Source of the DNA: Escherichia phage ime09
DNA: 64,000 bases
Direction: 5' to 3' (one strand)
Sequence record: NC_019503.1
Both the position numbers and the translations under genes were made by a program. Shown here piece after piece: positions 4,966 through 35,688 of the stretch (the stretch's first letter is position 1; each line of letters starts with the position of its first letter). The notes below the pieces were generated by a model. The model searched no databases. It saw only the letters and a program-made list of their open reading frames with translations, and had not been told where the DNA came from.

Positions 4966-5248
4966 TCATATCCTCAATCTGCGATCTAGTAGTCTTCCAA
5001 AGAATACTAATAAGTTCATCGTTATATGGCTGTTTTAGAATATCCCGACTTTTCTTGATAGCATATTCGTATTGAGCAAAATTATTGTTTTCAGCTGCAA
5101 TCTGAGCGTGCTTATAAAGACGGTTCAGTTCGCGTTTGTTTTTAGACAATAACTTATTTGCTTTTCTTTCTGCTTCAAGACGGTTCTTTTCTTCAATAGA
5201 AGAAATAAGCTTTTCCACTTCATCATTAATTTCGGGTTTATCAGTCAT
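4931..5248 (-). CDS. Hypothetical coiled-coil protein
   Basis: ORF track 105 aa, charged helical sequence. Confidence 0.5.
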   Translation of the reverse strand: MTDKPEINDEVEKLISSIEEKNRLEAERKANKLLSKNKRELNRLYKHAQIAAENNNFAQYEYAIKKSRDILKQPYNDELISILWKTTRSQIEDMIDAYTRKIQAS

Positions 5249-5249
5249 A

Positions 5250-5468
5250 TTATTTCTCTAATATAAAATAAAAATCATCATCTGTTAAATGATACCGATA
5301 GTTTAATTCTACACCATTAGATTTAAAAGCGGTATCATACGGATTTTCTGGATCAATATCAATGTCAAGAGCTAAAACTTCCCTGAGATACATTTTAAGT
5401 AAATAGGGAATAGCTTCAACTTCAGGTATTTCTTCCAAGAATCCGGAGAGGTTAATCGTTAGCCTCAT
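5250..5468 (-). CDS. Hypothetical small protein
   Basis: ORF track 72 aa; start overlaps gp55 stop region. Confidence 0.45.
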
Positions 5469-6015
5469 ATAAAAAATCCAAACTAGGAGAATCGTCTACA
5501 ACACTTTTCTTTTCAGCCCCCGGTGTTCTATAGGTTGATTCTTCGTAATGCGTCATTTTATCGTAGATGTCTTGAATAAAAGTTTCATCTACTAACGCAA
5601 CCATATCGTCGTCACGACTGTCATAGACATTGTGAACGAAGTAACTGTATTTCTTTGCAACTTCCTTACGTTCTTTTTTAATACGTTGGACGAATGCATT
5701 AAAACAAGCTTGAGTTATATATGCATGTGGGTTTTTATATTTCGTTTCATCAAAATTATGAAGCCCCTTAATAGAAGCTTCTATACCATCTGCAATCATT
5801 TCTTGTTTCCAGGATTGGGTGTATCCTGAAAAGTTGAAACGTTTAGATAAGCCTTCTGCAATAAGCATAATGGCTAATCCGATAGTATCATTCTGACGAA
5901 CTACTTTATTTGGGTCTTTATTATTTGCTAATTCTGTTTTCCAATCAATAATAGCTTGTAAAAGCTCTTTATTGTTTACGTAATTATATTTAGGCTTAGT
6001 TTCTGACATTTTCAC
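5452..6015 (-). CDS. 55: Late-transcription sigma factor gp55
   Basis: 187 aa, [26 protein letters not shown]... matches recalled T4 gp55 sequence and position. Confidence 0.92.
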
Positions 6016-7151: not shown

Positions 7152-7367
7152 TTAAATTTTCCAGTTACCATTTTCATCAATAAATTTAATCCAGTCATTT
7201 ACTGACCACCTGGTCGTATCGCCTTTTGGAGCAACATTTAAAGTGTATAATCCTTGTTTAAAAAGCATGCGTTTGATATTCATATTTTCCTCAGCTGTAA
7301 CGATAGCACTCGTTTGATTTACGCTTAGCAACTCGTTGAGAAGTATTGTAATCAAAATCATCGTCAA
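7152..7367 (-). CDS. Hypothetical small protein; true start possibly internal Met (MNIKRMLF..., 7283)
   Basis: ORF track 71 aa; N-terminal part overlaps upstream ORF end. Confidence 0.4.
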   Translation of the reverse strand: MTMILITILLNELLSVNQTSAIVTAEENMNIKRMLFKQGLYTLNVAPKGDTTRWSVNDWIKFIDENGNWKI

Positions 7368-7623
7368 TGTAAACTGATTTTTTCAACTTTCTTACTTCAC
7401 CACGTAATTGACGATTTAGCTCATCTTTAACTTCTGAATCGATGCCTTTCATTCTACGCCATTTATCTGAGCGAAAAATGTTTTCGACCATATCTTTATG
7501 ACTTACACCATCAGGAGCTTTACGCTTTCCGAAATAGTCATAATCACGAACTTTTAAGTCTTTACGACGATACGTTTTACCCATGGAGTTTAATTTCCTT
7601 AGCAACTGAACTAAATACAGCAC
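7291..7623 (-). CDS. Hypothetical basic protein; probable true start MGKTYRRK at 7584
   Basis: ORF track 110 aa; internal ATG overlaps stop of upstream 58-aa ORF in ATGGGTAA arrangement. Confidence 0.45.
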   Translation of the reverse strand: MLYLVQLLRKLNSMGKTYRRKDLKVRDYDYFGKRKAPDGVSHKDMVENIFRSDKWRRMKGIDSEVKDELNRQLRGEVRKLKKSVYIDDDFDYNTSQRVAKRKSNECYRYS

Positions 7624-7753
7624 GATCGCAAATCATCTGTTTATTCCATTTAAGTACAGTATAATGAACATCTAGATCATCTACTGCTGTAACAATAACA
7701 ATATGTCCGTTAACACGATAATACTGATCCCTTTTAATCTCTTTATCAACCAT
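7577..7753 (-). CDS. Small ORF (58 aa, MVDKEIKRDQYYRVNGH...) missed by the 60-aa ORF cutoff
   Basis: Hand translation of minus strand; GAGG Shine-Dalgarno upstream; lies downstream of an early promoter. Confidence 0.3.
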   Translation of the reverse strand: MVDKEIKRDQYYRVNGHIVIVTAVDDLDVHYTVLKWNKQMICDRAVFSSVAKEIKLHG

Positions 7754-13162: not shown

Positions 13163-13415
13163 ATCGGTGTTTACAACGACGACATTTATAGCGAAGATTA
13201 CTAGTCTGCCAATGAACTAATTGTACCTGTTCAGTACCGCATTCAGGACAATTAGGAACGTTTTTAGAAGCCCTTTCGCGACGTTCAACCATAGCCATAA
13301 TAGCATCCCATGCTGGAGGTTTAAAATCTAAATCGTCACAACCATGAATCTTTCCACGCATTTCTAAATCATCTTCTTCACCAGCCATAATAATTTTAAT
13401 TAGATGAAGCTGCAA
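13134..13415 (-). CDS. Zinc-ribbon protein
   Basis: 93 aa, CPECG...CRRC four-Cys ribbon. Confidence 0.5.
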
Positions 13416-13436
13416 TATCTTCTAATAAGCGCTTTT

Positions 13437-14366
13437 TCATTTCAATACCTCAATAGCATTACGTAAACCATTTGCTTTTGCATTAAGATCTTTTAACAAT
13501 TTGGTGTGTTCGGCAATCTGGGCTTCAACTTCAATCAAACGAGCATTGAGATATTCACGTTCTTCGCTCAAGTTATCAATCTTTTCTACTTTAGGCTCTT
13601 TTACAACTGTCTTATATGTATTAGGGTTCTTCAGTTTAATTAGAATGCGTGAACTGTATAACATTGAACCATTATCTTCGATTTCGTCATACATTTCTAC
13701 TACGTCCATGATTTTTAACATCATGCGAAGTTTATAAGACAACGAACGAATAGTTTTGTTGTGCTTATTAATTTCTCTAGAGTTCATGGTGCCGAGATTA
13801 CGTGAGTAATAATAAGGAACCTGGATATTAATTAACACTGATGAACCACCTGGCTTGTGTGTTACTTCATCAGCAATAACCCAATCCTTAACATGAACTG
13901 TATTTGTACGGTCATCACCCGCGGCAAACAGTTTGCGAGCATGCTTAAAAAGCATATTCACTTGGTCATTGAATTGACAAGCAAATTTATCAGCAAATTT
14001 AGTTTCAGGAATGGTAGATAACCAATCAGCCAAATGAGTCTTTTTAACATCGTTAACAATAGTAAATTCAACCAAATCAGTTATAGATGTCTCAGATTTA
14101 ATAAAGCTCGGCTTCATAAAGTTTTTAATGTTATCGCGAGCTACAGTAGAAGATAACATACGAGAACGTTTAAACCATTGAAGCAAATTGCCCAACGAAT
14201 GAGAATAAGCGTTTTGAGTATCTTTACAGATATGATTTTCCTGGCCAACATATTGAAGGAAATCACGAAGAATATTATTGATTACTGCTCTGTGTCCGAT
14301 CTGATAATTACGGTGTTTAGTAATAAGACTGTCAAAATAATCAATATAATGTTTACGAGTTTTCAT
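13437..14366 (-). CDS. Hypothetical protein with C-terminal coiled coil (array member 1)
   Basis: 309 aa; C-terminal ~50 aa heptad-like charged helix. Confidence 0.6.
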   Translation of the reverse strand: MKTRKHYIDYFDSLITKHRNYQIGHRAVINNILRDFLQYVGQENHICKDTQNAYSHSLGNLLQWFKRSRMLSSTVARDNIKNFMKPSFIKSETSITDLVEFTIVNDVKKTHLADWLSTIPETKFADKFACQFNDQVNMLFKHARKLFAAGDDRTNTVHVKDWVIADEVTHKPGGSSVLINIQVPYYYSRNLGTMNSREINKHNKTIRSLSYKLRMMLKIMDVVEMYDEIEDNGSMLYSSRILIKLKNPNTYKTVVKEPKVEKIDNLSEEREYLNARLIEVEAQIAEHTKLLKDLNAKANGLRNAIEVLK

Positions 14367-14418
14367 GTTCTTCTCACTTGGTTAATGGCTTATACTCCGA
14401 GCCATCCTTGGCTTTAAA

Positions 14419-15471
14419 TTACTTAATTAACTGTAAAGCTTGTTCCAAACGATCAAGGCGATTAACAGATTCTTCCCAAATCCTTTTAGCCTTCTCATAT
14501 TCTTTCTGCGCTTTATTAGAAATTTCTAGAACTTCTTTATAAGCTTTTTCTAGTGCAATAACTTCTGGACGAATTTCTACCGATTCAGGCGAATCATCAA
14601 GATTATCCATTAGTTCCTCAAGTGTAGTTTCTTCTTTAGGAGTATTCACAATTTCATCACATTTTTGTTGGTAAATTTCTTTATCAGTCGGTGAATAAGC
14701 ACATTTCACTTCACGAAGACTAACTACAATTTTGTATCCTTCCCAACCGCATATATTCTTAAAAGGATACGTATGAATATTTTCTACTGTTTCCATACAA
14801 AGTAATGCGGTTTCTAATTGACGAGTTATAGTGCTAGCAATTGAGAAAAATTTATTAATATTCCTTTGGTTAGTTTCTGGTGTAAAAAATCCATAATTCA
14901 CAAAAATAGATACTTTATTTTTATCAAGTTCATATTCTTTTATGATAATCATATCAGAAGCCAAAGGATGAATTTGACGATAATCGCCATAACATAATTT
15001 AGAAGCTGATTTTAGAATCTGTCCTTTGAAAAGCCTGAAATTACTAATCCAACGACGAGTAAAAATATTCTCAGGGTCTTCTTTATTATTAAGATGATAA
15101 GAATTAACATCACCGAACCAATTATATCCTACTACATCTTTGGTTCGTTTAATTTCTTTCCCAAAATTACCAAGAATATCTCGATTAACCAAATATGAAA
15201 GAAGACGAGACTCTTTAAAGGTTTTCTTGATAACATCTTTATCTACACGGCTAGAAATTTTACGAATTTCATGAATAAATTTAACAGAAGAAACAATACT
15301 TGCATCAACACTATTGAGCCATTGATTGATAATGGAAATAACGCTATTTTGGCCAAACATCGGTATAGCTTTATCATCAATAACGCTGTTGAATGATTTG
15401 ATATATTCGTTACGAGTCATATTAATCTCCTCAGTAGAAAGTAAGAACATTATACCACATCCTTGTGGCAA
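14419..15471 (-). CDS. Hypothetical protein with C-terminal coiled coil (array member 2); start may be internal Met
   Basis: 350 aa ORF; C-terminal coiled coil. Confidence 0.6.
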   Translation of the reverse strand: MPQGCGIMFLLSTEEINMTRNEYIKSFNSVIDDKAIPMFGQNSVISIINQWLNSVDASIVSSVKFIHEIRKISSRVDKDVIKKTFKESRLLSYLVNRDILGNFGKEIKRTKDVVGYNWFGDVNSYHLNNKEDPENIFTRRWISNFRLFKGQILKSASKLCYGDYRQIHPLASDMIIIKEYELDKNKVSIFVNYGFFTPETNQRNINKFFSIASTITRQLETALLCMETVENIHTYPFKNICGWEGYKIVVSLREVKCAYSPTDKEIYQQKCDEIVNTPKEETTLEELMDNLDDSPESVEIRPEVIALEKAYKEVLEISNKAQKEYEKAKRIWEESVNRLDRLEQALQLIK

Positions 15472-15477
15472 AGTAAA

Positions 15478-16506
15478 CTAGTTTAGTGCATTTAGTGCAT
15501 TGTTCAGTTTAGAACGTTGCTTCGTGAGATTTTTGACTTTTTCTTGAGCTTTTTCTAGCATCTTTTCAGCTTCTAACACCTCATTAGTTGCTTTAACGAG
15601 TTCATCATCTACTGCCTTTATAGACTTCTCAATCGCATCTGCATGCCATTTTTCAACAGGTTTAAGACTCGGATTTTCATCAGGAAGAAAATTCACTTTA
15701 TTGAATTTCCATGCATCCTTATTACCTGAACTATACATCCAAAATTTAGGATCGTTTGATGAGTAATTAGATAAATTTAAATTTAAGTTATCTTGCACTT
15801 CTTGCTTTTTCTCTTGTGTAACTTCGTCCTTTCTCAAAAATTCATATTTAAATGAAACGATCATATCAAGTTCATATGTTGTTGTGTCTAATTTAAATCG
15901 CTCAAAACGAGGTAAAATCTTAGACTGAACAGCGGCAACAACATCCATATACTTAAATGCTTCTGTCAACTGCGATTTAAGGCATTCGCAAATTGAAAGA
16001 GAATTTTTTGTATTAGGTTTAAAGCTAATTCGTGCAGTTCTGTTATTTTCTTTTAATGGTCTTACTTCCATCTGAAGAGTATAACCATCAAATTTCAGGT
16101 TCTTTAAGTTAATGTCAGAACCTTTTAATCGACTAGCCGTGGACAAAATTTGCTTTAATTGTTTACGGAATAGAGCAATAAATCTCCATTCAATACGATA
16201 ATGATTTGGATTGAAAAATCCAGATGATAAATCGACCTTACTTTGACCAACGCCTTGAACAAATAAAGGATTTTTATAATCAATAGTTTTACAGAAATCG
16301 GTGAGCTGCTCACGGGCCGTCATTTGTGTAATATATCCTGCTTTACTAAAATTACGCACCCATTCACTGCTATTCGTATACTTAAAGTGATGAATAACAC
16401 GATTAACTTTATCAGGGTCTAAATTATTTTCACACAAAAATGTCATAGCATCACGAGTATAGCTGGCATTACGAACCATATCTTCAATTTGAGAACGAGT
16501 TTTCAT
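15478..16506 (-). CDS. Hypothetical protein with C-terminal coiled coil (array member 3)
   Basis: 342 aa; C-terminal coiled coil. Confidence 0.6.
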   Translation of the reverse strand: MKTRSQIEDMVRNASYTRDAMTFLCENNLDPDKVNRVIHHFKYTNSSEWVRNFSKAGYITQMTAREQLTDFCKTIDYKNPLFVQGVGQSKVDLSSGFFNPNHYRIEWRFIALFRKQLKQILSTASRLKGSDINLKNLKFDGYTLQMEVRPLKENNRTARISFKPNTKNSLSICECLKSQLTEAFKYMDVVAAVQSKILPRFERFKLDTTTYELDMIVSFKYEFLRKDEVTQEKKQEVQDNLNLNLSNYSSNDPKFWMYSSGNKDAWKFNKVNFLPDENPSLKPVEKWHADAIEKSIKAVDDELVKATNEVLEAEKMLEKAQEKVKNLTKQRSKLNNALNALN

Positions 16507-16514
16507 GGTGTTCC

Positions 16515-17441
16515 TTAAGATTTAAGTAAATCAACAATTTTAATTAATTTTTCACGCTCAGATTTAGCTTTACTACTCAGTCCAGATAGTCTGAAAATTT
16601 CATCATCATATTGTTGAATAGAAATATTCAGCTCTTCAATCTGTTTATTAAAATAATCAATTTGTTCAGAATGTTTTTCGTTACTACGAACTGGTACAGG
16701 TTTCGTAGGCAATGTAGTTGAACTGGATTCATCCGGGCGATAAATTAAAATACAACTTGAACCAATAGGGCATTTTGCTCCAGATGAATATTCTAATGTT
16801 CCAGCTTCTTTTAAAACTTCAAAAGCTAAACAGAGATGATGCCCCATATTAACATAATCTGTAGAGCGAGCTCTGATGTAATAATCATCGCCGCGAATAC
16901 TAAATTTAAAACATTTAAGGTCTTCTGTATTATTGGTCTTAAAAATCATTTGTTTATCTAGACCTTTAGCTAATCGAGCGCCCAATGCTAATAATCGGCG
17001 TTGATTTTCCCACAAATCCGCAATCATTTGATCGAATGATAATTTTGGCATCAGTCGACCATAAAGGTCATATCCTTTATTATAATTACGAAGAATTTCA
17101 CTCGCATTAATACGAGACAACGCTCCAATTTTATTAAGGGCTTTCATAATACGATTAGATAAACTCATTCCAGACCCATTTGTTCGCTGTAGATGTTTTT
17201 CTAATCCAAATCCAATATCAACTTTAAACTTATCTAAAATTTCTGCATGAACATCTCTGTCGATAACATTCAAATCCAAAGTTGAGTTAAATCTATGAAA
17301 AAATTTATCTGGCTCTGCACTGCGAAATACAGTCCATTCATTCATCATTTTTTTATTAACTAAAGATTTAATTACTGCATTGACATTATTAATTACTACT
17401 GACATATTTTCCTCACTCAATTTCAATTTTACTAAATACAC
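16515..17441 (-). CDS. Hypothetical protein with C-terminal coiled coil (array member 4)
   Basis: 308 aa; C-terminal coiled coil. Confidence 0.6.
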   Translation of the reverse strand: MYLVKLKLSEENMSVVINNVNAVIKSLVNKKMMNEWTVFRSAEPDKFFHRFNSTLDLNVIDRDVHAEILDKFKVDIGFGLEKHLQRTNGSGMSLSNRIMKALNKIGALSRINASEILRNYNKGYDLYGRLMPKLSFDQMIADLWENQRRLLALGARLAKGLDKQMIFKTNNTEDLKCFKFSIRGDDYYIRARSTDYVNMGHHLCLAFEVLKEAGTLEYSSGAKCPIGSSCILIYRPDESSSTTLPTKPVPVRSNEKHSEQIDYFNKQIEELNISIQQYDDEIFRLSGLSSKAKSEREKLIKIVDLLKS

Positions 17442-17820
17442 AGAATATGATTGAACAGACTACATAAGCACCACACACAGATTGAACTAATACCATCCCA
17501 AAGAACCAAACAATATTATCAAACAGTGTCTGTTTTACGTCGAAAGGACGTAAACTTACAGTAATATTATCACCTTTTTCTATTGAAGAATACATCTCTG
17601 GGGAAATATATTCACTAAATCTATAACCGTCTTTGAGTTCATATACGGCAATAAACGATAAACTAGACCCTTTTCCTTGTGTTCCTGTAATGGTATTAAC
17701 TACAGTAACATTATAATCTTTATAATGCATATAATCATTAATTGCGTAATAACCGTATGCAACTACTACACATAAACAACATATCAATAAATTCAATCTT
17801 TTAATTATCAACTGTTTCAT
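17413..17820 (-). CDS. Membrane protein, N- and C-terminal transmembrane helices
   Basis: 135 aa, hydrophobic segments LLICCLCVVVAYGYY and FFGMVLVQSVCGAYVVCSIIFCVF. Confidence 0.5.
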   Translation of the reverse strand: MKQLIIKRLNLLICCLCVVVAYGYYAINDYMHYKDYNVTVVNTITGTQGKGSSLSFIAVYELKDGYRFSEYISPEMYSSIEKGDNITVSLRPFDVKQTLFDNIVWFFGMVLVQSVCGAYVVCSIIFCVFSKIEIE

Positions 17821-17875
17821 AATAATCTCAATTAAAAGGGCTTAGAACCATTATACCATCCTTGGTATAAAGCGG

Positions 17876-18403
17876 TTATGCGAGTACCGTCTTTAACCGT
17901 TCTTCAAACTTCCGAAGAGTATTTTGGCGTTCAGCTCTTTGCTTTTTGTAAGTTTCAATACGCTCTGAAATGAGAGTGTATCGTTCATTTACTGATTCTT
18001 TCATAAAATCAGGAATTTCACGAGAAGCTTTAATCTCGTCAAATTTATCAATAACAGCTTGCTCTTCAGCAATTAAGTTATCATACATTAAAATATCTTT
18101 CTTGATGAACTCAATATCTTCTTGAGTTACACGAGATAATTTAGATGCTTTATCCTTTTTGTACTGTTCGTTAGTATCACGAGACCAGTGTAATGTACGA
18201 TTTTTATTCGTATTTTTGTAAATTTCTACAATACCAATCTCATCAATAATAACGATCCAATTCCAACGGGATTTGTAAATTTGTCCTCCATCAACAGTGA
18301 TTTCACCTCCGATTGAGATGTCGTTAAAGAACTTGCTTTGTGCTTCAGATTTAAATTTACCATCGTTGTAATTTACCAAGTTGAAAATATCTTTAGCGTT
18401 CAT
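17876..18403 (-). CDS. Hypothetical protein
   Basis: ORF track 175 aa, preceded by early promoter. Confidence 0.55.
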   Translation of the reverse strand: MNAKDIFNLVNYNDGKFKSEAQSKFFNDISIGGEITVDGGQIYKSRWNWIVIIDEIGIVEIYKNTNKNRTLHWSRDTNEQYKKDKASKLSRVTQEDIEFIKKDILMYDNLIAEEQAVIDKFDEIKASREIPDFMKESVNERYTLISERIETYKKQRAERQNTLRKFEERLKTVLA

Positions 18404-18427
18404 TTTCTGTTCCTCCGTAGTTGATAG

Positions 18428-18470
18428 TTGTATAGTACCACAGAGGAACAGTCTTGTAAACCACTAAAAG
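18428..18470 (-). promoter_or_regulatory. T4-type early promoter (minus strand)
   Basis: plus-strand tatagtacc (18431-18439, -10 on minus) and tgtaaac (18455-18461, -35). Confidence 0.5.
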
Positions 18471-18778
18471 AAACTTCTTTCACAATTTTTTCCACTGAAC
18501 CATGCGCTCACTGCTTTCTTAGTCTCGGGAGCAGTGTTATCCATAAACCATTCAAAGGCAGCCTTTTTATGATTCTGGAGGGCTTCTCGGGCTTTAATCT
18601 GCTCACGGTCTATTAACACTAACATATGAGCCTTTCTTGTCACCATGGGCTTCTTATGATTTTTTGAATACTCCCAGTCATTTGTCCATCGCATTGTCGT
18701 TGCGAACTGAAATACTGCTTCTTTAATTTTAGTTTCGTAAATTTCACGAGCCTTTGAGTATAACATCATTACCTCCAT
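18464..18778 (-). CDS. Hypothetical protein
   Basis: ORF track 104 aa. Confidence 0.45.
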   Translation of the reverse strand: MEVMMLYSKAREIYETKIKEAVFQFATTMRWTNDWEYSKNHKKPMVTRKAHMLVLIDREQIKAREALQNHKKAAFEWFMDNTAPETKKAVSAWFSGKNCERSFF

Positions 18779-18867
18779 TCACCAGTTTAATTCTAGTCAT
18801 CTTTTTAATGGCAGTCCATATAATCTATTTCTGAACTGCCTTTTTGTCATAGAAGTCCTCTTATGAA

Positions 18868-19848
18868 TTATTTCAGAAGAGTAACCTCAGCGATTTCTTC
18901 CCAACCGTTTTTATCGGTCATAATAAAGTCAGCAAGATAAAGAGCAGTACGCAGTGAAACATTGCGTAAACGATTAACATTAACTTTCATCCATGATAAT
19001 GCTTTATAAGTTTCTTCATCAGAAAGACCGCGCTTTTGCATCATGTCAGTTGAAAGAATAACATCTTCAACCCTGACCATAATTTCTTCATTAGTGTGAA
19101 CACCCAAATCCAAATAAACCGAGCGGGACACTAATGCTTGTAAATGTGGAGCAAGTTTAGTACCACGGTCTAATTCGCGGTCAATGTCAACGTTTGTGAT
19201 AAAAACAATCGTTCCTTTAAATTCAAACTCACGGTCAATGCCTTTTTCTTCTAAGTAAGAAGATGCAGTGCTCCAGCAGACTTTACGGGTCTCTCCGGTG
19301 TCCAGAGCGGCTTTTAGAAGATTAAGAATGTCCATATCAGAGAAAACATCCACATCATCAATCAAAAGGACAGAATTCTCTTCACGATTATTCCAAAGCT
19401 GCTCATAAAGACCAATACCAGAGATTTTACCATTAATGCTTTTATATTCAATGTATCCAATATCATTTGCTTTATTTAAAGCTTTATCTAAAGAATACGT
19501 TTTACCAATACCTGCTGCGCCAGAGATAATCAATGAACGAATATTTCCGTTAATAATACCATTCGTCATCATTCCCATAACATTAAATCTTTTATTAATG
19601 CGGGTTTTCATATCTTCATACGATTCTTTAACTTCTTCAACTTTTACACCATCATATGAAATATCTGATTTGTAAACCCAAACACCGCGACGTTTACCGT
19701 CAATTTCAACAAAAACTTTACCATCTCCTTGTGCATCTACCGGAGCATTATCTGGGAACCATTCGCCTAAGAGCTCAAAAGTTCCAGAGATTTCTTTACC
19801 GAAGTAGATACCCTTATTGATAGTTACAGTTTTCATTTTATTCTCCAA
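18868..19848 (-). CDS. P-loop NTPase (AAA-like) with ~110-aa N-terminal domain
   Basis: 326 aa, Walker A GAAGIGKT, Walker B VLLIDDVD; own early promoter upstream. Confidence 0.6.
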   Translation of the reverse strand: MENKMKTVTINKGIYFGKEISGTFELLGEWFPDNAPVDAQGDGKVFVEIDGKRRGVWVYKSDISYDGVKVEEVKESYEDMKTRINKRFNVMGMMTNGIINGNIRSLIISGAAGIGKTYSLDKALNKANDIGYIEYKSINGKISGIGLYEQLWNNREENSVLLIDDVDVFSDMDILNLLKAALDTGETRKVCWSTASSYLEEKGIDREFEFKGTIVFITNVDIDRELDRGTKLAPHLQALVSRSVYLDLGVHTNEEIMVRVEDVILSTDMMQKRGLSDEETYKALSWMKVNVNRLRNVSLRTALYLADFIMTDKNGWEEIAEVTLLK

Positions 19849-33506: not shown

Positions 33507-34100
33507 TTATTTCAGAGAATTAATATATTCCTGAACATCGGCAGAGGTAGTTTCAACCCCAGAAATATTACCATTAAAGGTTTCAACTCGAGCAAGGGTA
33601 TCTTCAATATCAACCTTAGTCAGTGCTGCAATTTCAACTACATCATCTGCAGTACTAATTCCAAGGGCATTTGCCGCACGAGTTTCACGGATATATTCCA
33701 ATTTAACTGCAAGTTCTTGACGAGCATCATCTAACTCAACTACTTTCTTGGCGATTTCAATTCGCATTTCAGCATAACCGTCAGCTTTAGTAGTCAATTG
33801 CTCAGCTGTTCGACGATATAGTAAACCGAGTTTAGCATGCATTGTTACATCTTGACCTTCGGAAAGAAGTTTACGAATTTCGCGTTCTTTTGATTCGGCC
33901 TGTCGATTCTTTTCGATAACAAGTTCACGAATACGTTTTTCTTCATTAATAGATTTAATAGAAGCAGTTTTTAGATCTTTAATTTTATCAAGTAGTTTTG
34001 CTGCTGCAACGGTATACTGTTCTTCGACAGATAGATTTTTAGCCATAGCAGAACCAAGTTTAGTGCGAATAAACTCAACAATTTTCTTCAGTGTGTTCAT
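33507..34100 (-). CDS. Charged coiled-coil protein (weak PspA/IM30-like resemblance)
   Basis: 197 aa, almost entirely helical/charged; resemblance to PspA is compositional only. Confidence 0.5.
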
Positions 34101-35124: not shown

Positions 35125-35688
35125 TTATTTATCTAGTTTAGTTATTATAGCTTCTGCGGCAGCTTTTAGCTTAGATGCGGTGTTAATACGATTTTTAATT
35201 TCAGTATAAGCGTCGCCAAGAACATCAAGGCTATCAGAATAAACACTTACACTATTGCGTTCGCTATTTGAAATAGAACCTTTAGTTTTACGATCAAAAT
35301 CGGTGTACACGTCTTGAAGATCACGGGCTGCCTTCTTTGCATCATCCAATGCATCAAGAGCTTTATTCAAAGCATTAACGTATTTTTTAGTGTCGAACAT
35401 ATTCTTAGAAATTTTAACAGGTGCGCGTTCAGGAGTAGCTAACACAGATTTAGGAACCTGAGCGCCAGATGCCAATTTCTTAGAAATTTTGAAAAATGCT
35501 TTGTTGAATTTATTTTCTTGACTCATTGTAAAAGAACTATTATCGATGTTGTACATTTCAATAGCTTTAGCTTTCCACTTAAGAAAATCGCCGCGGTCTT
35601 TTGGGTCCAAGTGGAAAAATACTTTAGTAAGATCTGCTTCAGATGGTAATTTTGCTGCTTCGGTTAAAAATTCGGCATAGGTTTTCAT
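35125..35688 (-). CDS. Internal-protein-like (capsid targeting sequence) protein
   Basis: 187 aa beginning MKTYAEFLTEA; own terminator. Confidence 0.6.
   Translation of the reverse strand: MKTYAEFLTEAAKLPSEADLTKVFFHLDPKDRGDFLKWKAKAIEMYNIDNSSFTMSQENKFNKAFFKISKKLASGAQVPKSVLATPERAPVKISKNMFDTKKYVNALNKALDALDDAKKAARDLQDVYTDFDRKTKGSISNSERNSVSVYSDSLDVLGDAYTEIKNRINTASKLKAAAEAIITKLDK

Follow-up and report, generated by a model that had tools for sequence, protein, structure and literature searches.

Why would a T4-like phage carry, side by side, four genes whose products are built alike but share little recognizable sequence? The question is raised by positions 13437-17441 of a 64,000-nucleotide (nt) stretch of Escherichia phage ime09 (record NC_019503.1), a stretch that we refer to, at its full length, as "the window". 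Four consecutive genes, nrdC.3, nrdC.4, nrdC.5, and nrdC.6, lie there on the minus strand. A preliminary description of this DNA proposed that they form a diversifying family of paralogs, each ending in a coiled coil through which the proteins might oligomerize, at a locus for accessory, host-range, or defense-related genes. The evidence from profiles, predicted folds, and motifs supports the view that the four genes are ancient, very diverged tandem duplicates of one Straboviridae-specific gene. On balance, it is also probable, with no great confidence, that their products act as a set of early counter-defense proteins.

The four genes and their kinship

The phage belongs to the Tequatrovirus (T4-like) group, and 740 phage records match the 5-kb stretch around the array, the highest DNA identity being 96.6%. 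In Shfl2 (96.2% DNA identity), the same four genes are annotated by name as nrdC.3, nrdC.4, nrdC.5, and nrdC.6, and T4 has the identical gene set in identical order. The four open reading frames (ORFs) of the preliminary description are present and correspond to these genes. The mechanical ORF list gives sizes of 309, 350, 342, and 308 amino acids (aa), with two starts, those of nrdC.4 and nrdC.6, that are too long. The start codon of nrdC.4 is the ATG at 15420, with a GAGGA ribosome-binding site and an early-type promoter upstream, and that of nrdC.6 is the ATG at 17405, which is preceded by GAGG; both match the coding sequence calls of the T4 record. The corrected sizes are 309, 333, 342, and 296 aa.

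Pfam and PHROG keep these genes in separate families of unknown function. Two of them, nrdC.3 (13437..14366; here and below, all features of the array are on the minus strand) and nrdC.4 (14419..15420), share PF26897 (Phage_T4_Y04OP)/phrog_1435 (E values of 3e-116 and 7e-168, respectively). For nrdC.6 (16515..17405), the assignment is PF26899 (Phage_T4_Y05B)/phrog_2257 (E = 1e-151). Precomputed annotation agrees, with PF26897 on all nrdC.4 homologues and PF26899 on all 105 nrdC.6 homologues. Lastly, nrdC.5 (15478..16506) is placed in PHROG 2351 and is a member of Pfam DUF7235 (PF23882; E = 1.4e-125), with 419 bits against a gathering score of 30 bits. It is the sole strict member of that family in the array, since nrdC.3, nrdC.4, and nrdC.6 gave no match to the DUF7235 profile in the Pfam scan. 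Many GenBank and UniProt entries name the products of nrdC.3-nrdC.10 "thioredoxin", a label that appears to be a carry-over from the name of the nrdC locus; the Pfam and NCBIfam scans that were run returned no thioredoxin or glutaredoxin match for NrdC.3-NrdC.6.

Despite this division, several lines of evidence connect the four genes. The sequence relation between nrdC.3 and nrdC.4 is significant, both by BLASTP (E = 5e-8, with 27% identity over 231 residues) and by profile comparison (hhalign probability 98%). BLASTP found no match among the remaining pairs, and the N-terminal regions are indeed as divergent as initially described. To compare nrdC.5 with the nrdC.3/nrdC.4 profile, we used an nrdC.5 profile enlarged with distant relatives from an exhaustive search and with RB69-type phages. 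The local alignment of the two profiles spans 144 columns with a probability of 84% (E = 7e-6), and the global alignment spans 290 columns with a probability of 93% (E = 4e-8), making a relation between nrdC.5 and the nrdC.3/nrdC.4 pair probable at the level of sequence. Moreover, when the nrdC.5 hidden Markov model (HMM) is run over the 142 ORFs of the window, nrdC.4, nrdC.6, and nrdC.3 rank 2, 3, and 5. The paralogy proposed in the preliminary description is supported by BLASTP and profiles for nrdC.3 and nrdC.4, by hhalign for nrdC.5, and by fold and motifs for nrdC.6.

Three collinear motifs emerge from an alignment of eight sequences drawn from four genera: F-K-x-S-R-L-L-S…R-D-x-L-x-N-F-x-K, I-L-x-x-A-S-[KR]-L-x-x-G-D, and M-[DE]-V-V. 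The first of these occupies aa 67-88 of NrdC.4 (TFKESRLLSYLVNRDILGNFGK; 15157..15222), with counterparts at 14112-14177 in nrdC.3, 16288-16353 in nrdC.5, and 17076-17141 in nrdC.6. It is aligned by hhalign in all family pairs, and the nrdC.5 HMM matches the motif 1 region of the other three proteins. The second motif lies at aa 135-146 of NrdC.4 (ILKSASKLCYGD; 14983..15018), and its counterparts are at 13911-13955 (nrdC.3), 16114-16149 (nrdC.5), and 16956-16994 (nrdC.6).

The first codons of nrdC.3 and nrdC.5 are alike (MKTR), with 17 of 19 nt the same around the start (14355-14373 and 16495-16513), and nrdC.4 begins MTR. We consider the shared 5´ ends of nrdC.3 and nrdC.5 to be a small remnant of common origin. 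With this exception, a search for DNA-level repeats between the paralogs, as expected from recent gene conversion, returned only short chance matches.

Neither the genes themselves nor the role of nrdC.5 is new. In the literature searched, we found no functional information on nrdC.3, nrdC.4, or nrdC.6, and no account of the kinship of all four. Joining the four in one superfamily is new, as is the recognition of the superfamily's conserved coil and of a syntenic array that varies in copy number.

Predicted fold and C-terminal coil

AlphaFold2 (AF2) models of the monomers were made for NrdC.4 and NrdC.6, with predicted local distance difference test scores of 83.8 and 75.3, respectively. Helices and hairpins follow one another in an identical order in the two models, in line with the uniform architecture proposed in the preliminary description. 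Both match the same ten uncharacterized Straboviridae proteins (BFVD; 304-374 aa) over the full length, with Foldseek E values of 5e-8 to 1.5e-3. These ten come from phages of Pectobacterium, Enterobacter, Acinetobacter, Klebsiella, Erwinia, Yersinia, and Serratia, and one of them is a 308-aa protein of Tequatrovirus fPS-65, i.e., of the length of a T4-type NrdC.3. NrdC.4 and NrdC.6 are thus predicted to have a common globular fold, and structure prediction agrees with the preliminary description for these two of the four proteins. A protein of Klebsiella phage Mineola, gp080, is a Foldseek match of both NrdC.4 and NrdC.6 and, along its entire length, a match of the nrdC.5 HMM as well (E = 2e-7), tying the three lines of evidence together.

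The common build consists of an N-terminal helical domain that carries the motifs, a central alpha/beta domain, a flexible linker, and a C-terminal amphipathic helix of ~49 residues. In NrdC.4, the central domain is predicted to be a hairpin-helix-hairpin unit at approximately aa 151-237 (14710..14970) and is the most variable globular part; in three of the four families, conservation within the globular region is lowest here. Its predicted fold resembles that of tail terminators (Foldseek lists those of Arthrobacter phages, with a probability of ~0.9). However, this is a simple fold, a two-layer alpha/beta sandwich, and nitroreductases, RNA polymerase subunit L, and ribosomal protein S6 are among its other matches. 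Sequence-profile searches of the PDB with all three family profiles returned designed helical repeats and one ribosomal protein (E = 0.03), i.e., nothing real. Weak Pfam and NCBIfam matches (PHL, Phage_int_SAM_1, tyrosine recombinase, DUF3905, BipA_C, DUF5580_C, and PgrA) were treated as noise because they do not recur consistently across family members and are far from the family cut-offs.

The charged, heptad-like helix of ~50 residues that had been proposed for each C-terminus is borne out by three types of evidence. First, the last 49 residues of each protein follow one unbroken heptad register. Hydrophobic residues occupy 12, 11, 13, and 12 of the 14 a/d positions in NrdC.3, NrdC.4, NrdC.5, and NrdC.6, respectively; each segment comprises seven heptads, with 35-41% charged residues and at most one proline or glycine. 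The segments correspond to aa 261-309 of NrdC.3 (13440..13586), aa 285-333 of NrdC.4 (14422..14568), and aa 294-342 of NrdC.5 (15481..15627), where the signal extends back to approximately aa 286; the helical/heptad segment of NrdC.6 covers aa 243-296 (16518..16679). Second, composition-preserving shuffles of the 49-residue segments reached the observed value in 8, 39, 0, and 0 of 5000 trials, in the same order (p ≤ 0.008), and control proteins showed no outstanding signal. Indeed, when the 72 window ORFs that are 100 aa or longer are ranked by C-terminal heptad score, nrdC.3-nrdC.6 take exactly the top four places. Third, the AF2 model of NrdC.4 has a single 48-residue helix at 285-332, and that of NrdC.6 has helices at 243-273 and 278-295, with a break at 274-277; in both, a low-confidence linker comes before. 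All four proteins therefore have the pattern expected of a predicted coiled coil, i.e., hydrophobic a/d positions over at least four to five heptads in a helix.

The register, counted from the C-terminus, coincides in NrdC.3, NrdC.4, and NrdC.5, and NrdC.6 has one additional residue. The ending L-x-x-A-[ILM]-x-x-L is common to all four proteins, and the coil is the best-conserved segment both within the nrdC.3 alleles and within nrdC.4. Oligomerization through the coil, as suggested in the preliminary description, is plausible.

The neighboring nrdC.8 (17876-18403; 175 aa) also ends in a charged helix and was considered as a fifth member; it was rejected, with a weak heptad signal (p ~0.03) and no HMM or hhalign similarity. 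Elsewhere in the window, the minus-strand genes at 33507-34100 and 35125-35688 encode phrog_1203 and phrog_2280 proteins, both of unknown function, with significant C-terminal heptad periodicity, the first being apparently helical throughout. Separately, a 173-aa protein (P0230; L017, 120-641) combines an unrelated N-terminal half with 53 C-terminal residues identical to the NrdC.5 coil. It sits on an 803-nt metagenome contig and could reflect either real module shuffling or an assembly chimera.

Array remodeling and selection

Wherever the family is found, it is positioned between nrdC.10 and nrdC. A comparison of presence and absence across T4-like genomes gives 0 to 4 copies at this fixed locus. 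Tequatrovirus genomes (the window, T4, and Shfl2) have four copies, RB69 has three (without nrdC.4), Dhakavirus dhaeg has three (without nrdC.3), Acinetobacter phage Acj61 has two, which are adjacent, and Klebsiella phage Mineola has one; none was detected in Aeromonas phage avDM4. Two further candidates, Acj61 p118 and Mineola gp081, were rejected as members, neither having a coil or an HMM match. The exhaustive HMM search with the nrdC.5 profile returned 13 matches among 1.84 billion representatives, with no bacterial relatives recognized, and no relatives of the family were recognized outside T4-like phages. One of the 13 matches (P0236) is a repetitive, artifact-like sequence.

Compared with T4, the NrdC.4, NrdC.5, and NrdC.6 proteins are 96-97% identical (96% for NrdC.5), with a ratio of nonsynonymous (dN) to synonymous (dS) substitution rates of 0.05-0.17; judging from these values, the three genes are under ordinary purifying selection. 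The situation is different for nrdC.3, whose product is 61% identical to that of T4, with a dS of ~1.0, as compared with 89-100% identity and dS of 0.07-0.40 for its neighbors. The window nrdC.3 is a local allele replacement in a near-identical backbone. Among the phages of the collection, tblastn identities to it cluster at ≥90%, ~74-78% (RB69 type), and ~60% (T4 type).

Several natural variants show the array being remodeled. Four contigs carry an nrdC.5::nrdC.3 fusion without nrdC.4 (e.g., L015, 3570-4900, and L016, 1931-3261). In the protein P0119, mid-nrdC.5 is joined to mid-nrdC.3 at a short FN..VN stretch that both share, leaving a 115-aa N-terminal remnant of nrdC.5. Elsewhere, nrdC.4 is split into two ORFs of ~155-193 aa (L003, 4916-5948; BFVD entries A0A482N302 from phage G8 and A0A2Z5WKJ2 from T2), which suggests pseudogenization, apparently including T2. 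In Shigella phage Sf25, nrdC.6 (P0121) has an internal tandem duplication of ~80 residues, giving 378 aa instead of 296.

Two observations concern RB69 (L010). Its "nrdC.5" (4973-5875) encodes 300 aa with no terminal heptad coil, and close relatives (L005 and L006) encode 319 aa; the short end may be due to a 3´ frameshift. In addition, nrdC.7, which encodes a predicted membrane protein (7247-7660), lies between nrdC.2 and nrdC in RB69, whereas T4-type phages have it between nrdC.6 and nrdC.8, indicating a local rearrangement beside the array.

The term "diversifying" in the preliminary description therefore needs qualification. Ancient divergence, a copy number of 0-4, the allele replacement at nrdC.3, and a central domain that varies most in three of the four families all fit the term. 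Purifying selection on the orthologues does not.

Function of the array and comparison with known systems

The experimental entry point to function is nrdC.5. A T4 mutant with compensatory deletions fails to plate on E. coli ECOR17, or on MG1655 carrying the ECOR17 dsr1 gene, and plasmid-borne T4 nrdC.5 restores plating of the deletion mutant on dsr1 cells (Srikant, Guegler & Laub, eLife 2022; PMC9391042). T4 nrdC.5 thus counteracts Dsr1, in agreement with the accessory, defense-related character ascribed to the locus at the outset. A 2026 preprint describes Dsr1 as a SIR2 NADase effector joined to a TPR sensor, with the late major capsid protein as its trigger (PMC12803255).

The array appears to be transcribed early. 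A candidate early-type sigma-70 promoter, recognized by its match to the consensus, lies between the nrdC.5 stop codon and the nrdC.4 start codon (15449..15477, minus strand). Reading from 15477 to 15449, it consists of TTTACT, a 17-nt spacer, and TATAAT with an extended TG (TG-n-TATAAT). Neither late promoter motifs (TATAAATA) nor MotA-box middle promoter motifs were found in 13300-19000. The assignment to early transcription follows from the promoter type, from this lack of late and middle motifs, and from the designation of nrdC.5 as an early gene in the eLife paper (PMC9391042).

The explanation that we favor is an array of early counter-defense, host-range proteins in which a variable globular part binds the target and the coil oligomerizes. 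The globular part of each paralog would bind a different immune sensor of the host and block it, with the variable central domain as the candidate region for target recognition. Oligomers would form through the conserved coil, either increasing avidity or matching an oligomeric target. NrdC.5 would bind Dsr1 before the late trigger appears, and its paralogs would do likewise to other targets. Because an early protein has to silence the sensor of a late protein, pre-emptive binding of Dsr1 would be the simplest mode of action. It is the homology to nrdC.5 that points to a counter-defense role for nrdC.3, nrdC.4, and nrdC.6.

A number of observations weigh against this explanation. First, functional data are limited to nrdC.5. 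Second, nrdC.6 is tied to the other three by fold and short motifs only, its profile-profile matches to them having E values of 2e-3 to 3e-2 and being confined to the motifs; the profile comparison proposed initially gives a significant relation between nrdC.3 and nrdC.4 and a probable one between this pair and nrdC.5, and reaches only the level of motifs for nrdC.6. The place of nrdC.5 in the common fold is argued from its profile (the global alignment) and the Mineola gp080 bridge only. Third, orthologue dN/dS values of 0.05-0.30 give no sign of positive selection at the whole-gene level, a weaker signal than expected for arms-race genes. Fourth, the PADLOC profiles of known defense and anti-defense systems yielded no true match; the sole match, between nrdC.4 and BrxC (14 bits), runs from coil to coil only. 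Lastly, the coil may have a role other than oligomerization, either packing against its own protein or binding a target.

An alternative is a host-takeover or housekeeping role that has nothing to do with immunity, e.g., binding of nucleic acid or of a host enzyme. The activity of nrdC.5 against Dsr1 would then be either incidental or peculiar to this one paralog. The purifying selection on orthologues and the fixed syntenic position in distant genera would both fit such a role, as would a similarity, weak and isolated, between residues 30-86 of nrdC.3 and the SAM-like N-terminal domain of tyrosine recombinases. The recombinase-like match, however, occurs in 1 of 25 family members and is far below family cut-offs. 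Furthermore, phages can do without these genes and have often lost, split, or fused them, no member was found in the Aeromonas T4-like phage, and the sole experimental result is counter-defense. We regard a housekeeping role as unlikely, although it deserves to be kept in mind.

The similarity of the coils raises the question of whether the four paralogs assemble into one hetero-oligomeric complex that acts in a single process, instead of each being an inhibitor in its own right. The genes are adjacent, and the coils are alike in length, in C-terminal register, and in their ending, L-x-x-A-[IL]-x-x-L. A copy number that ranges from 1 to 4, with a single copy in Mineola, no nrdC.4 in RB69, and no nrdC.3 in dhaeg, speaks against such a complex, as does the persistence of natural deletion and frameshift variants. 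Moreover, nrdC.5 alone, supplied from a plasmid, restored infection, and the coils of the paralogs are distinct from each other, each being conserved between orthologues across genera (nrdC.4 and nrdC.6 in dhaeg, and nrdC.3 in RB69). A single complex is therefore improbable.

A more specific version of the counter-defense explanation would have the paralogs be early blockers that together match the host sensors. Each would plug a different clade of the large family of TPR-type pattern-recognition sensors to which Dsr1 and Avs7 belong, with the central domain mimicking a phage structural protein and the coil presenting several copies of it. If so, copy number and allele swaps such as that of nrdC.3 should track the sensor repertoire of the hosts. 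This version is speculative, and we would give it only a minor share of the probability.

A related possibility is that the proteins are decoys, whose central domain mimics a tail-terminator-like protein and occupies host pattern-recognition sensors before the real late proteins arrive. The Foldseek matches to Arthrobacter phage tail terminators, the existence in bacteria of sensors that respond to the tail terminator (Avs15) or to the capsid protein (Dsr1 and Avs7), and the apparent early expression of the genes would all be consistent with decoys. However, the sandwich is simple and also matches the other proteins named above, the sequences show no likeness to tail terminators, and Dsr1, the one known target, senses the capsid protein and not the tail terminator. 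The chance that the proteins are decoys of this type seems slight. Lastly, that the genes are unrelated and their tails are generic amphipathic helices that look alike by chance would fit the silence of BLASTP between most pairs but is very improbable, being contradicted by the evidence from profiles, fold, motifs, register, and synteny.

Having weighed these alternatives, we return to early counter-defense proteins as the probable role of the array. Three anonymous T4 ORFs, nrdC.3, nrdC.4, and nrdC.6, become specific, testable counter-defense candidates, and the conserved C-terminal coil that they share with nrdC.5 points to a common mode of action. A family with 0-4 copies at a fixed Straboviridae locus may also help to explain differences in host range among therapeutic T4-like phages.

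Known systems resemble the array in different respects. The likeness to tail terminator and completion proteins (lambda gpU, T5 p142, and SPP1 gp17-like proteins) is one of fold only: nrdC.3-nrdC.6 have no sequence or profile similarity to tail terminator families, add N-terminal helical domains and a coil, are apparently early genes, and lie outside the structural module. A functional analogue is DSAD1 of phage SPbeta, which silences an immune protein of the SIR2-type NADase kind. DSAD1 is reported to repress DSR2, which is otherwise activated by the tail tube protein. Its target is DSR2 rather than Dsr1, and the likeness to NrdC.5 is one of function. To our knowledge, DSAD1 has neither a tandem array of paralogs nor a C-terminal coil. 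The known system within the family itself is T4 NrdC.5, the anti-Dsr1 protein of DUF7235, of which the window nrdC.5 is an orthologue with 96% aa identity. The window nrdC.3, nrdC.4, and nrdC.6 differ from it in Pfam family (PF26897 and PF26899) and have in common with it the architecture, the motifs, and the coil.

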